This document shows, in pieces, positions 3,109-14,611 of a DNA stretch of 24,173 nucleotides. A model generated the notes under the pieces. The model was not told the DNA's origin, did no database searches, and saw only the letters and a list, made by a program, of their open reading frames with translations. Source of the DNA: Candidatus Nomurabacteria bacterium (GTDB taxonomy: Bacteria; Patescibacteriota; Minisyncoccia; Phycocordibacterales; CALRBL01); the NCBI GenBank assembly GCA_943354075.1, contig CALRBL010000001.1, positions 1 through 24,173 on the forward strand, in the 5' to 3' direction. Both the position numbers and the translations under genes were made by a program. The first letter of the stretch is position 1, and each line of letters begins with the position of its first letter.

Positions 3109-3180
3109 GGCGACTAGAGAGAATCGAACTCTCGAATTTGGCACCACAAACCAATGTTTTACCACTAAACTATAGTCGCC
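3109..3180 (-). tRNA. tRNA-His(GUG) with genomic G-1; CCA not encoded
   Basis: Minus strand G-GCGACTA...TTGGT-TTGTGGT-GCCAA...GAGAG-TTCGATT-CTCTC-TAGTCGC-C folds as a cloverleaf. Confidence 0.95.
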
Positions 3181-3596
3181 ATACCCTGCAAAATCAGCAC
3201 CTTACTGAACTTTTGCTTGCTTACACTATCATGATGTACCAGATGATGGCAATTGTGGCAAAGCCAGGCTAGATTTTCTATACTCACATTGGTATGGTCT
3301 TGATCAACATGATGCACAGCTAAAACTCGCACATCTTTCTCTTTACACATTAAACAAACTTGTGAAATAGAGCTGCCGAGTAAGATCTTTCTGTATCTTG
3401 AATAACCATCTTTCCAATTTTTATGTCTATCTCCTGCATACTGTGTATTTCTCCATTTTGTCTGACATGACTTAGAGCAAAAATACTTTTTACTTTTAGA
3501 ACGTTTAATCTGGGTTAGTGTTTTATAGATTTCTTTTGAGCAGGAATAGCACTCTATGAAAACACCTGTTTTACAATATATTCTTTGTATGCTCAT
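3165..3596 (-). CDS. Zn-finger HNH endonuclease-like protein (stop inside tRNA-His)
   Basis: CYSC..FCSKSC, CLMC, HHVDQDHTNVSIENLAWLCHNCHHLVH; ATGA overlap with the upstream paralog. Confidence 0.85.
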   Translation of the reverse strand: MSIQRIYCKTGVFIECYSCSKEIYKTLTQIKRSKSKKYFCSKSCQTKWRNTQYAGDRHKNWKDGYSRYRKILLGSSISQVCLMCKEKDVRVLAVHHVDQDHTNVSIENLAWLCHNCHHLVHHDSVSKQKFSKVLILQGMATIV

Positions 3597-4084
3597 ATTT
3601 TTGATAATAATTCCCTATTAACTTCTTGGTAATGATGGACTAAAAAGTGGCAATTGTAGCAAAGCCACGTTAAATTACTAATTGAGTTATTCTTTCTATT
3701 CCAATCTACATGATGCGCAACTAAAATTTTAGTATTATCCTTCGTACACAGAAGACACGAAGGAACTCCACCCTTTCGTAATAAAATATTTTTATAGGCA
3801 AATTCTCCATTTTTCCAATTTCCATGACCAGCTTCTCTCTGCTGAGGATTAAGCCAATTTAGATTACAGGCATGTGAACAAAAATAATTCTTACTCTTGG
3901 ATCTATTAAGATCTCTTAGTGATTTATATATTTGCTTAGAACAGACAGTACACTTTACAAGGCTTCCTTTTCTTCTACCCACATCACTACATTTTCTTGA
4001 ACAACAAATACCAACTCCACGTTTCAACCACGATGGTTTAGCATAAAATTTATTTAGACAAGTTTTGCATAAAATCTGTGACAT
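3593..4084 (-). CDS. Zn-finger HNH endonuclease-like protein
   Basis: CKTC..CCSRKC, CTVC..FCSHAC, CLLC, HHVDWNRKNNSISNLTWLCYNCHFLVH; TAAAAT (4091-4096) 6 nt upstream. Confidence 0.87.
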   Translation of the reverse strand: MSQILCKTCLNKFYAKPSWLKRGVGICCSRKCSDVGRRKGSLVKCTVCSKQIYKSLRDLNRSKSKNYFCSHACNLNWLNPQQREAGHGNWKNGEFAYKNILLRKGGVPSCLLCTKDNTKILVAHHVDWNRKNNSISNLTWLCYNCHFLVHHYQEVNRELLSKI

Positions 4085-10339: not shown

Positions 10340-10828
10340 ATGTCTGAACAATATATCAGAAAACCTAATACACAATGTAGAATATGCAAAAAACCAATCT
10401 ACCGAAGACCTTGCCAAATAATGCAAGGTGGAGTATTTTGTGGAGTAGTCTGCTACGGTAATTCTAATAGAAAAGAAACTCCATGCCTCGTCTGTGGCAA
10501 ACCAATCATGGCTAGTTTTAATAAGAAGACCTGTAGCAGAAGCTGTGCAAACATTCATAGAGCCGGCATTACCTACAAAAACAACAGACCACACGATAAA
10601 GTAAAGTATCAAAGGGGCCTGAAAGTAAGGCTGTTGGATGATAGAGGAGAAAAATGTGCGCGCTGCGAATATGCAAAAATCGAGATATTGCAGATACATC
10701 ATAAGGATAGGGATAGGGAAAATAATGAGCTATCCAATCTGGAACTTATTTGCCCCAACTGTCATTATGAAGAACATTTTTTAGAAAAAAGTTGGTTAAA
10801 AAAACGGAGGAGTGGCTCGAGAGGTTGA
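10340..10828 (+). CDS. Zn-finger HNH endonuclease-like protein (stop inside tRNA-Ser)
   Basis: CRIC..FCGVVC, CLVC..TCSRSC, CARC, QIHHKDRDRENNELSNLELICPNCHYEEH; TACAAT 6 nt upstream. Confidence 0.88.
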   Translation: MSEQYIRKPNTQCRICKKPIYRRPCQIMQGGVFCGVVCYGNSNRKETPCLVCGKPIMASFNKKTCSRSCANIHRAGITYKNNRPHDKVKYQRGLKVRLLDDRGEKCARCEYAKIEILQIHHKDRDRENNELSNLELICPNCHYEEHFLEKSWLKKRRSGSRG

Positions 10829-12212: not shown

Positions 12213-12485
12213 ATGTCTGATCTCCAATTTGAAGAAAATAATGTTTCAGCATTTCAATCAAGAATAATCCTTGGTAAGGCAGTAACACCCAAGATGATCA
12301 CCTTTCTCATCAATAGGGGTATTGTCAAAGATCAGAAAACTGCCGGAAAATTTCTACTTGGTATATGTATAATTTTTATACTTGCCTCTATTTTAATACT
12401 TGCCGTATTTGTTTTTGATGTAAATCTTACAAAAAAAGATACCCGCAACGGTCCAGGAATAGGACCCCTAAAAGAAAGAATATGA
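12213..12485 (+). CDS. Hypothetical single-TM protein
   Basis: Start MSDLQFEE has TATTAT 7 nt upstream; one TM helix; ATGA overlap with the pilin. Confidence 0.65.
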   Translation: MSDLQFEENNVSAFQSRIILGKAVTPKMITFLINRGIVKDQKTAGKFLLGICIIFILASILILAVFVFDVNLTKKDTRNGPGIGPLKERI

Positions 12486-12958
12486 GAAAAGGATTCACAT
12501 TAATAGAGCTGTTGGTTGTCATCTCCATTATCGGACTTTTATCAAGTATCGTATTAGCATCACTGAATACAGCAAGGCAAAAAGCTGAGATCGCAAAGGT
12601 AGCATCAGAAATGAAAAGTATCCAATTAGCGCTTGAATTGTATTATGACAGCAATAATGAATACCCTAATAATCCGCTATCAGATGTAAATCCATATAGC
12701 ACCGGAAATTTCACTTCTGGACTCGATCCTTTGGTCACTAGCGGATATCTTCCACTGGTTCCGACGTGGGACACAAATAAATATGAATACTTCTATTTTG
12801 TAGGTGACATACCTTTACTCGGTTATACTTGCGGAGGAGTGACCCCTACGTCTTACCTACTCGTCATAATAGATGTGGTAAACGCTTCAGTATTTCCTTT
12901 AGGTGTACTTGATGATGGTGTTGGTGGTCTTACAGGATACTACTGCATCTCTTCCTAG
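12482..12958 (+). CDS. Type IV pilin/pseudopilin (class III signal peptide)
   Basis: MRKG|FTLIELLVVISIIGLLSSIVLASL (G-1/F+1/E+5); C-terminal Cys pair. Confidence 0.93.
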   Translation: MRKGFTLIELLVVISIIGLLSSIVLASLNTARQKAEIAKVASEMKSIQLALELYYDSNNEYPNNPLSDVNPYSTGNFTSGLDPLVTSGYLPLVPTWDTNKYEYFYFVGDIPLLGYTCGGVTPTSYLLVIIDVVNASVFPLGVLDDGVGGLTGYYCISS

Positions 12959-12992: not shown

Positions 12993-13466
12993 ATGGAATC
13001 AATGATCTCCTGGAAAGCATACGAGTACATTCACGAGCCTAAAAGTGCTGATTGGTATTGGGCACTTGGCATCATCGCACTTGCTGTCGCGGGAGCTGCG
13101 ATAATTTTCGGAAACTATATTTTCGCAATTCTCGTTCTCATCGTCGCGATTTCTCTTGCCATCCACGCACATCATCACTCCCCTCGTCTTGTCGACTTTC
13201 AACTGAATGAACGAGGAGTAAAGATCGATCATATTTTCTATCCCTACAAAACACTCGAATCATTTGATATCGAAACCCACGAGACCGAGATCGGAACTTT
13301 TGCTAAAATCTTCATCAAGTCCAAAAAAACCATGATGCCCCTCATCGTGATCCCTATAGCCGAGGTTCACCCTGAAGATGTGCGCGAATATCTTTCGATC
13401 TTTCTCGAAGAAGGTGAGCATACTGAAAGCGTGGGACATCGTCTGCTTGAATGGCTCGGATTTTAG
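12993..13466 (+). CDS. Conserved hypothetical 2-TM protein with C-terminal beta-rich (bPH-like) domain
   Basis: W-x-AYEY...DWYW, two TM helices, then FQLNERGVKID..YPY..F; TATAAT 6 nt upstream. Confidence 0.75.
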   Translation: MESMISWKAYEYIHEPKSADWYWALGIIALAVAGAAIIFGNYIFAILVLIVAISLAIHAHHHSPRLVDFQLNERGVKIDHIFYPYKTLESFDIETHETEIGTFAKIFIKSKKTMMPLIVIPIAEVHPEDVREYLSIFLEEGEHTESVGHRLLEWLGF

Positions 13467-13519
13467 TTTTATTTGATTTTTATATTGATACCCGTGCTCG
13501 CGGGTTATAAAATGAAGGG

Positions 13520-14194
13520 ATGGTGAGGAAGGAATTAAGAAGACAAGCCGAAAAATTGAGAGATGATGGGAAATCCTATCAAGATATCTCGCGTGAATTA
13601 GGTGTGGCAAAAAGTACGCTTTCGTATTGGTTTAATACTACCTCTCATTACTTGGACACATCAGAGAAACAACTGGAACATCTTAAAAGAGCTCGTATTT
13701 TGGCTCTAGAGGCAATACAAGATAAACAAACAAAGAAGAGGCTGGACTTGGAAAAAAGTGTTACTTTAGATTTTAGTGCTCGTGATATTAATTCACTCTT
13801 TACGAAGAAAATTGCTCTTTCTATGCTGTATTGGGCAGAAGGAACAAAGCACAAAAGAGCCGGAGGTCTAACCTTCACAAATACCGATCCCATGCTTATA
13901 AAAACATTTGTCTCACTTCTTAAAACCGTATTCGATATTGATCTATCAAAAATAAGATTGCGATTAGCCATACATAGTTACCACAATGAAAAAGAGTGTA
14001 AAATATTCTGGTCAAACCTTACAGGAATCGAGTTGGATCAATTCAATAAAACATACTTGAAACCAAGAAGTCTTACGAAGAAATTCCGGCAAAACTTCAT
14101 GGGAATCTGCTTTGTATATTATCCAAATGGTGGTATAAGAAAGGAGATATTAGAAATCGGCAGACAATATTGCAGCCACATATCGCTCCCGTAG
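13520..14194 (+). CDS. HTH + LAGLIDADG-like protein (stop inside tRNA-Arg)
   Basis: N-terminal HTH GKSYQDISRELGVAKSTLSYW; LAGLIDADG-like ALSMLYWAEG, then LTFTNTD..LIKTF; TAAAAT 6 nt upstream. Confidence 0.75.
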   Translation: MVRKELRRQAEKLRDDGKSYQDISRELGVAKSTLSYWFNTTSHYLDTSEKQLEHLKRARILALEAIQDKQTKKRLDLEKSVTLDFSARDINSLFTKKIALSMLYWAEGTKHKRAGGLTFTNTDPMLIKTFVSLLKTVFDIDLSKIRLRLAIHSYHNEKECKIFWSNLTGIELDQFNKTYLKPRSLTKKFRQNFMGICFVYYPNGGIRKEILEIGRQYCSHISLP

Positions 14195-14256
14195 TTAAAT
14201 GGATATAATAGTAGCTTGCGGAGTTACTGTTCCAAGTTCGATTCTTGGCGGGAGCA
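14185..14256 (+). tRNA. tRNA-Arg(GCG)
   Basis: GCTCCCG/CGGGAGC-A, D arm GTTA-AATGGATA-TAAT (like the Arg-UCU tRNA here), GTAGC-TTGCGGA-GTTAC, CCAAG-TTCGATT-CTTGG. Confidence 0.9.
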
Positions 14257-14302
14257 CATGATTACATTCAATAGGAGTATGTGGACTATATAAAATAGAC
14301 CA

Positions 14303-14340
14303 ACAAAAAAACCGCTCTACATTTGAGGCGGTTTTTTTGT
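14303..14340. terminator. Bidirectional terminator between tRNA-Arg and rpsT
   Basis: Perfect 13-bp inverted repeat ACAAAAAAACCGC/GCGGTTTTTTTGT. Confidence 0.85.
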
Positions 14341-14347
14341 TTCTTTC

Positions 14348-14611
14348 TTAGCTTAGCTTCTTAATCGCCTTCGCGAGACGTGATTTCTTTCTTGAAGCGG
14401 TGTTTTTCTTGATAATTCCGTTCTTGGCTGCCTTGTCGAGTGCTTTGTAAGCAAGAGTAAGAGCCTCTTTGGTTCCCTCTTTAGTCTTTGAAACAACGAG
14501 CTTCTTGACAACTTTTACGGTCTTCGCCATCTTCTCCTTTGCGGCGAGATTGACGACACGCTTTCGCTTTGATGAGCGGAGCGCTTTCTTTGCTGATGAT
14601 GTGATTGGCAT
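14348..14611 (-). CDS. rpsT: 30S ribosomal protein S20
   Basis: MPITSSAKKALR, AYKALDKAAKNGIIKKNTASRKKSRL. Confidence 0.97.
   Translation of the reverse strand: MPITSSAKKALRSSKRKRVVNLAAKEKMAKTVKVVKKLVVSKTKEGTKEALTLAYKALDKAAKNGIIKKNTASRKKSRLAKAIKKLS

Follow-up and report, generated by a model that had tools for sequence, protein, structure and literature searches.

The DNA stretch analysed here, referred to as the window over its full length, comprises positions 1 to 24,173 of contig CALRBL010000001.1 from a Candidatus Nomurabacteria bacterium. It contains an open reading frame (ORF), P0001, which ends inside the gene for tRNA-Arg(GCG). With a probability of roughly two in three, P0001 is a free-standing selfish gene of the homing endonuclease type located in the 5' leader of this essential tRNA, whose product would cleave ORF-free alleles and thereby initiate homing. 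This reading is favoured because of the patchy distribution of the gene family, its empty sites, the decay of individual copies, the existence of tRNA-specific clades, the AT-richness of the ORF, and the presence of a second nuclease family in the same kind of position. A first-pass annotation had left the choice between an active homing enzyme and a domesticated regulator of the adjacent tRNA; the comparative data fit the former better, and the latter poorly.

Organization of the ORF-tRNA locus

The features of the locus are as follows (positions in the window).

13485-13513, + strand: sigma-70-like promoter, TTGATA-17 nucleotides (nt)-TAAAAT, 10 of 12 consensus matches, putative function
13490-13505: dyad ACCCG-6 nt-CGGGT in the promoter spacer, core CCCG/CGGG at 13491-13504
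13520-14194, + strand: ORF P0001, 224 amino acids (aa), encoding a helix-turn-helix (HTH), a linker helix and a LAGLIDADG-like domain
13520-13642, + strand: N-terminal three-helix HTH, residues 1-41
13661-13780, + strand: long single linker helix, residues 48-87, predicted local distance difference test (pLDDT) 84-94
13781-14191, + strand: LAGLIDADG-like alpha/beta domain (C-domain), residues 88-224, pLDDT 91 when folded alone
13814-13843, + strand: end of the motif helix, ALSMLYWAEG, residues 99-108, E107 at the catalytic acidic position
14185-14257, + strand: tRNA-Arg(GCG), found by ARAGORN, Rfam score 60.1 bits
14192-14194, + strand: TAG stop codon of the ORF, identical with T8-A9-G10 of the tRNA
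14297-14344: terminator-like A-run/hairpin/T-run, serving the ORF-tRNA unit and the convergent rpsT

The ORF overlaps the first 10 nt of tRNA-Arg(GCG), and its last three sense codons and stop codon correspond to tRNA positions 1-10. This overlap, including the position of the stop codon at T8-A9-G10, had been correctly described in the first-pass annotation. The start that it gave, 13508, is where the -10-like box begins and had to be replaced by the ATG at 13520.

The putative promoter is the sole promoter-like site on the + strand in 13200-14450, and both of its hexamers are kept in the syntenic relative L101. The ATG lies 6 nt downstream of the end of TAAAAT, so that the mRNA would have no leader or hardly any. 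A TANNNT box exactly 6 nt upstream of the start recurs in 33 of 118 family loci, a spacing that forms a clear peak, and motifs resembling a Shine-Dalgarno sequence precede the ORF in 3 of the 118. The fixed spacing of the -10 box and the near-absence of Shine-Dalgarno motifs support a self-contained, leaderless cassette. The terminator-like hairpin begins 40 nt beyond the tRNA and has a folding energy of -19.4 kcal/mol (z -6.0), which was matched by none of 200 shuffled sequences; it was missed by a simple terminator scan and was picked up by folding against shuffles. Promoter, leaderless ORF, tRNA, and terminator thus appear to constitute one unit. The composition of the ORF is foreign to the host genome: its GC content is 36.7% (35% at third codon positions), compared with 45-47% (47-50% at third codon positions) in the flanking genes and 43.5% in the genome.

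Control of the ORF and the tRNA by one apparent promoter is also what would be expected of a domesticated WhiA-like regulator, in which the HTH and an inactive LAGLIDADG scaffold would bind the promoter or the tRNA gene, control the ORF-tRNA unit, and possibly regulate their own synthesis. The foreign composition of the ORF speaks against this alternative, which is considered unlikely, as does the fate of its proposed operator. The dyad noted in the first-pass annotation as a possible binding site is indeed present between the -35-like TTGATA and the -10-like TAAAAT. However, dyads with arms of at least 5 bp occur in 55% of the real 60-nt upstream regions of the family and in 42% of the shuffled ones, which is not above chance, and L101, the closest syntenic relative, has an unrelated sequence at that place. 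The operator reading was rejected on these two grounds.

Two further explanations of the locus were discarded. With Rfam applied to 13300-14420 at E-values up to 1, the tRNA was the sole structured RNA detected, and no group I intron was found by Rfam in the whole window, so the ORF is not regarded as intron-borne. A duplicated or displaced piece of the tRNA was rejected as well: no 18-mer of the tRNA was matched at 14 or more of 18 positions within 13200-14184, and downstream there were just chance matches of 7-8 nt.

The tRNA itself has a genomic GCG anticodon, not ACG, and decodes CGY codons; it is present in 39 of 41 related genomes, and no tRNA-Arg(ACG) was found in the window's genome assembly, which is incomplete. 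This suggests that CGY decoding proceeds without A-to-I editing by TadA in this lineage.

Linkage of the family to tRNA genes

The linkage to tRNA genes is the strongest result of the analysis. One genome per prokaryote species was scanned, which gave 80 loci in other species, 79 of them with a determinable stop codon, and in 78 of these 79 a tRNA, mostly tRNA-Arg(GCG), is located within -117 to +50 nt of the stop. A lack of such linkage among homologs had been named in the first-pass annotation as one of two findings that would refute the proposal, and the linkage proved to be near universal. In 46 of the 78 loci the stop codon lies at or past the start of the tRNA, with recurrent offsets of -10, -15, and -22. 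At most about 6% of genes could abut the 5' end of a tRNA by chance (26 tRNAs in the 448-kb assembly of the window's genome), and the observed linkage is far beyond this bound. In a wider collection of family members, a tRNA is present on the 3' side in 111 of 115 entries; among the four exceptions, one is cut by the end of its contig, and in two the matching tRNA flanks the gene on the opposite side. Of the sizeable ORFs in the genome of the window, only three have their end inside a tRNA, and each of them is nuclease-like. The family comprises at least 2,864 clusters at 50% identity.

More distant relatives retrieved in whole-genome searches abut tRNAs for Trp-CCA, Val-GAC, Ile-TAT, Ala-GGC, Gly, Ser, Gln, and Asn. 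Individual protein lineages are tied to individual tRNA species: mapping of the tRNA species onto the protein tree requires 15 label changes, close to the minimum of 13, compared with a mean of 44.1 for shuffled labels, and none of 200 shuffles was as low. The tree was obtained by an IQ-TREE quick search with SH-aLRT support only, leaving out the stop-containing or less than 170-aa entries L023, L050, L065, L071, and L073. The Arg-CCG clade is nested within the Arg-GCG clade. Residues that differ between clades map to the predicted beta-sheet and to the loop 181-195. One locus, L077, apparently carries two members, one ending at tRNA-Arg(CCT) and one of the Ala-GGC clade beside tRNA-Ala(GGC).

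Fused proteins of 532-576 aa contain two complete HTH plus LAGLIDADG-like repeats per chain, both with the motif YWCEGAK. They adjoin tRNA-Gln(TTG) in a high-GC genome context with glmU and prs as neighbours:

L133:2501-4099, fused two-repeat form
L134:1497-3227, fused two-repeat form, tRNA-Gln(TTG) on the opposite strand and overlapping the end of the ORF
L135:483-2213, fused two-repeat form, tRNA-Gln(TTG) on the opposite strand and overlapping the end of the ORF

The strict one-to-one link between subfamily and tRNA species, together with the clade-specific surface residues, would also suit an RNA-binding helper similar to LAGLIDADG maturases, which would bind its own precursor and aid the folding or RNase P processing of its tRNA. 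For group I introns, LAGLIDADG proteins are established as maturases. This explanation is nevertheless very improbable. Most relatives process the same tRNA without the protein, no intron or structured RNA other than the tRNA was detected, HNH nucleases occur at the same position, and in 7 of the 80 scan loci the tRNA is encoded on the opposite strand and hence belongs to another transcript.

Patchy distribution, empty sites, and decay

Members of the family are present in 21 of 41 relatives and in 103 of 401 sampled Patescibacteria genomes, with 0-7 copies per genome. Decay takes place in situ, as copies with internal stop codons or truncations still adjoin a tRNA. tRNA-Arg(GCG) itself is a core gene, matched in 39 of the 41 relatives, and yet 27 of the 28 loci recovered from them are ORF-free. 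The block consisting of a gene for a 157-aa membrane protein, the optional ORF, tRNA-Arg(GCG), rpsT, and ruvA is widely conserved, both with and without the ORF. In the same-genus genomes G004, G003, and G001 the site is empty: the membrane protein gene and the tRNA are separated by 32-85 nt, and no remnant of an ORF is found. Occupied syntenic sites harbour the relatives P0002 and P0007, which share 75% and 60% protein identity with P0001. A regulator of the tRNA is difficult to reconcile with close relatives that mostly lack the gene and yet have the same tRNA at the same locus, or with a family whose copy number varies from zero to seven and includes broken copies.

The gap between tRNA-Arg(GCG) and rpsT on the other side of the tRNA is variable as well. 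It contains a 201-aa ORF in G004 (L099:1856-2461) and a 292-aa ORF in the genome of P0002 (L101:3805-4683), and it measures about 90 nt in the window.

The ORF-linked tRNAs compared here stand out by their divergence. The linked tRNA of the window is 67-68% identical to the ORF-free tRNAs of the same genus, compared with 88-100% among the latter; if the linked tRNA of L101 is included, the range is 67-79%, based on two linked and three free tRNAs in all. The flanking genes of G004 are as close to those of the window as are those of the ORF-bearing L101. With two linked and three free tRNAs compared, the divergence of the tRNA in the window fits co-conversion or escape.

Architecture and predicted fold of P0001

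The full-length protein was modelled by AlphaFold2 with 40 relatives (pLDDT 88) and the C-domain alone with 50 diverse relatives (pLDDT 91). The N-terminal HTH postulated in the first-pass annotation is well supported: Pfam matches to HTH_38 (E 7.5e-6) and HTH_23 (E 4.8e-5) are both slightly under the gathering score, and the model superposes on the HTH domains of resolvase, Tc3, and TrpR with Z-scores of about 6.5. The motif KSTLSxW in the recognition helix is common to every tRNA-specific clade.

The motif ALSMLYWAEG with its retained acidic residue, likewise noted before, is located at residues 99-108. E107 and G108 are invariant in the 40 close relatives and in 50 broader relatives from all tRNA clades, and the signature E107-G108-x-K110 is conserved across all clades together with the HTH. 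Structural comparison of the C-domain by VIA-align, an aligner independent of Foldseek, yielded I-DmoI (Z 7.1, root-mean-square deviation 2.6 A, 83 aligned residues), WhiA (7.0), and E-DreI (6.9), followed by an intein endonuclease domain (6.5), WhiA again (6.3), and I-Tsp061I (5.7). LAGLIDADG proteins make up 8 of the top 11 matches, and the Z-score for I-DmoI is 7.1-7.4 over both model comparisons. In an hhalign comparison with a canonical LAGLIDADG_3 profile, built from domains in the relatives' genomes, 52 columns aligned in register (E 5.6e-4); YWAEG falls on WATDG and E107 on the catalytic Asp.

The C-domain is predicted to form a homodimer, with a score of 0.74 compared with 0.00 for the best of three controls; contact agreement between runs is at least 87% and pLDDT at least 83. 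Of proteins solved as pairs, 20 of 30 attain the mark used for this score; of those solved as single chains, 1 of 23 does. In the predicted interface the two motif helices face each other symmetrically, with contacts 95:95, 99:99, 102:102, and 106:106. This prediction may partly reflect the model's memory of, or likeness to, solved LAGLIDADG dimers. The two-repeat fusions occurring in nature are in keeping with a LAGLIDADG-like pairing of domains. As a whole, the models point to the C-domain as a remote LAGLIDADG-like relative in which the metal-binding position is retained. The earlier proposal of an HTH joined to a single-motif LAGLIDADG homodimer can therefore be maintained as remote homology on the basis of the VIA-align scores, the hhalign register, and the predicted dimer; it is not supported at the Pfam threshold or by Foldseek, as detailed below.

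With regard to a domesticated regulator, the appearance of WhiA among the best structural matches (Z 6.3-7.0) and the strong conservation of the HTH count in its favour. The Glu at the catalytic position, however, is invariant, unlike in WhiA.

When the PDB was searched by sequence, neither P0001 nor its family profile gave a match beyond weak HTH ones; NCBIfam and PHROGs matched the HTH and not the C-domain, and a feature search of the ESM Atlas gave no usable match. A structure search of the ESM Atlas recovered the same C-domain in HTH proteins of Actinomycetota. It also returned a cluster of 154-aa proteins (160 members) that have the fold of the C-domain without the HTH, at a template-modelling score (TM) of 0.89, and whose commonest labelled phylum is Uroviricota (tailed phages). 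On another contig, the genome of the window additionally has a canonical LAGLIDADG_3 match (C46:2659-2898, - strand) that exceeds the Pfam cut-off with E 4.7e-7 and falls in an open frame of 359 aa.

HNH nuclease genes in the same position

The window contains further ORFs with the same relation to a tRNA, and these belong to a different nuclease fold:

3165-3596 and 3593-4084 (second copy), - strand: HNH-type ORF pair in the leader of tRNA-His, stop codon 15 nt inside the tRNA
10340-10828, + strand: HNH-type ORF in the leader of tRNA-Ser(TGA), stop codon 23 nt inside the tRNA

Like P0001, these ORFs are AT-rich, and relatives of the Ser-linked ORF abut a tRNA-Ser, His, Thr, or Leu in 11 of 41 related genomes. 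Regulation hardly accounts for two unrelated nuclease folds with the same geometry, whereas a role of the leader as a niche for homing endonuclease genes would readily do so. The HNH family thus constitutes a further argument against a WhiA-like role.

Observations in conflict with homing

Several findings do not sit comfortably with an active gene of the homing endonuclease type. Sequence similarity of the C-domain to known LAGLIDADG proteins is low: LAGLIDADG_3 (PF14528) is matched with E 0.014 and 16 bits against a cut-off of 22.5, and 6 of 40 members reach an E-value of 0.1 or less. A Z-score of about 7, under 8, is "middling" by the calibration of VIA-align, and the hhalign probability is just 30%. 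Foldseek did not recover the fold; with the C-domain it placed OmpA-like domains first (E 5e-4, TM 0.40). The order of elements in the model is alpha-beta-alpha-beta-alpha-beta-beta-alpha, in which the first strand is short and an additional helix separates strands; that of the canonical LAGLIDADG core is alpha-beta-beta-alpha-beta-beta-alpha. At the DNA level, ORF-free alleles show no conservation on the leader side of the junction, which is awkward because a homodimer would prefer a near-palindromic target. No alignment column separates the 70 linked from the 27 free tRNA-Arg(GCG) sequences, A9 occurs in free tRNAs too, and the linked tRNA of G013 is of the free type. The loci with the tRNA on the opposite strand also depart from the expected arrangement. 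Finally, the protein tree of the Arg-GCG clade largely tracks host groups, and for this reason much of the distribution can be explained by prolonged vertical inheritance and numerous losses, without recent mobility.

Two candidate interpretations were dropped in this context. Immunity of occupied alleles through variation of the tRNA sequence was rejected in view of the missing separating column, the presence of A9 in free tRNAs, and the free-type tRNA of G013. The Foldseek matches in the PDB for the whole model and the C-domain (OmpA-like/YfiB and IspF entries, TM 0.2-0.4) were not taken as meaningful.

That the Arg-GCG clade broadly follows host taxonomy would agree with a domesticated regulator. 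It has a bearing on another alternative too, namely that P0001 is a relic: a former homing endonuclease that in this copy or lineage no longer cleaves and is kept by tight linkage to an essential tRNA which depends on the promoter of the cassette. The 60-75% identity of syntenic relatives points to vertical inheritance in the lineage, deletion of the lone + strand promoter-like site upstream of the ORF could silence the tRNA, and the decayed copies elsewhere indicate that the family degenerates in place. The relic interpretation has little probability, since the reading frame of P0001 is intact, every residue that is invariant in the family is kept (E107, G108, N121, and W164 included), and the congeneric genomes show that clean loss of the cassette is possible.

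Proposed mechanism and significance

If P0001 is a homing-type gene, the following course of events can be proposed. The promoter of the cassette would drive a single transcript of ORF and tRNA, as suggested by the position of the promoter and by the lack of a terminator or second promoter ahead of the tRNA. RNase P would cut this transcript at the 5' end of the tRNA and thereby make the 700-nt insertion harmless to the tRNA, so that tRNA processing would take the role that splicing has for intron-borne endonuclease genes. Predicted dimerization via the LAGLIDADG-type helices would join the two invariant E107 residues as a metal site, and the beta-sheet face together with the HTH would recognize the DNA of the ORF-free allele at the same tRNA locus. 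The resulting double-strand break would be repaired from the occupied allele, and the ORF, probably along with the adjacent tRNA, would be copied into the empty site. Occasional retargeting to other tRNA genes could have given rise to the tRNA-specific subfamilies.

Homing between cells would need DNA uptake. An ORF at 12482-12958 (+ strand) has a type IV prepilin-like N-terminus (KGFTLIELLVV) and may bear on this process.

More tentatively, and with rather less confidence than the reading of P0001 itself, tRNA 5' leaders may in general offer the free-standing homing endonuclease genes of cellular genomes a safe harbour that has so far gone undescribed, with RNase P processing in place of splicing. 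Transcription of the essential tRNA would then come under the promoter of the cassette. As the stop codon is often inside the tRNA, cleavage by RNase P would leave a non-stop mRNA, and the output of nuclease would be throttled by tRNA processing and trans-translation. Under such a scenario the nucleases would drive tRNA genes into gene conversion and shape the evolution of these genes throughout Patescibacteria and, by way of related fused forms, in high-GC bacteria.

An intron, an intein, or a phage lifestyle is considered necessary for homing endonuclease genes to persist without harm to the host. The family of P0001, found in about a quarter of the sampled Patescibacteria, and the HNH family appear to persist in the part of the pre-tRNA that RNase P discards. 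Provided that the proteins cleave DNA, they would explain the rapid turnover around tRNA genes in reduced genomes, provide an array of natural nucleases with one tRNA gene as the specific target of each, and offer a testable link between tRNA processing and the control of selfish genes. Should they not cleave, they would constitute a family of tRNA-gene-specific DNA-binding proteins whose role would still need explanation. The literature searches, which covered few subscription journals, turned up no account of nuclease genes located in the leaders of bacterial tRNAs.

Comparison with known systems

Among LAGLIDADG enzymes, I-CreI, I-MsoI, and I-CeuI resemble P0001 in having one LAGLIDADG-type helix that ends in an acidic residue and Gly, a two-fold dimer through this helix (predicted for P0001), and an alpha/beta core whose beta-sheet face bears lineage-specific residues. 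P0001 differs from them in the lack of an intron or intein, in its N-terminal HTH, in the 40-residue linker helix, and in the extra helix of the core. Its sequence similarity to LAGLIDADG is below the Pfam threshold, and the Z-scores for these three enzymes are 4.0-4.3, compared with 7.1 for I-DmoI. According to the models, the closest fold relatives of the C-domain are archaeal and intein LAGLIDADG enzymes and WhiA.

WhiA consists of two LAGLIDADG domains without catalytic acids and a C-terminal HTH, and it has a near-universal, vertical distribution in its phyla. P0001 shares with it the combination of a LAGLIDADG fold and an HTH, and WhiA is a top structural match. P0001 has a single LAGLIDADG-like domain, its HTH is N-terminal, its Glu is invariant, and its distribution is patchy; it does not have the characteristics of WhiA.

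I-TevI is a monomeric, intron-encoded GIY-YIG enzyme with an HTH at its C-terminus. P0001 resembles modular endonucleases of this type in that an extended linker connects a nuclease-like domain with a small HTH. By analogy, this modular layout suggests that binding and cutting are divided between separate parts of the protein.

In bacteria of the Candidate Phyla Radiation, LAGLIDADG endonucleases are encoded in insertion sequences of 16S and 23S rRNA genes, and the paper describing them makes no mention of tRNA (PMC11270868). Host phylum, broad protein superfamily, selfish character, association with an essential RNA gene, and removal of the insertion by RNA processing are common to these elements and P0001, the selfish character and the removal being proposed in the case of P0001. 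They are, however, located inside 16S and 23S genes, and the canonical LAGLIDADG_3 domains of the relatives match the P0001 family weakly.

The closest mechanism, by analogy, is the intronless homing of free-standing phage endonucleases, above all SegB of phage T4. SegB is a free-standing GIY-YIG homing endonuclease encoded in the tRNA gene cluster of the phage; it cleaves the tRNA gene region of a relative lacking it, and its gene is preferentially inherited together with flanking tRNA genes (PMC2330249). The two systems differ in the nuclease fold and in their location, SegB being phage-borne and P0001 residing on a cellular chromosome. A leader position with the stop codon inside a tRNA, or one lineage per tRNA species, is not reported for SegB. 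In both cases, a free-standing gene for a nuclease or nuclease-like protein lies among or beside tRNA genes, and the mechanism of SegB is the one proposed here for P0001. P0001 displays several traits of a free-standing homing gene: it is located beside its presumed target, is present or absent at orthologous sites, and belongs to a family with site-specific lineages, sporadic occurrence, and decaying copies.

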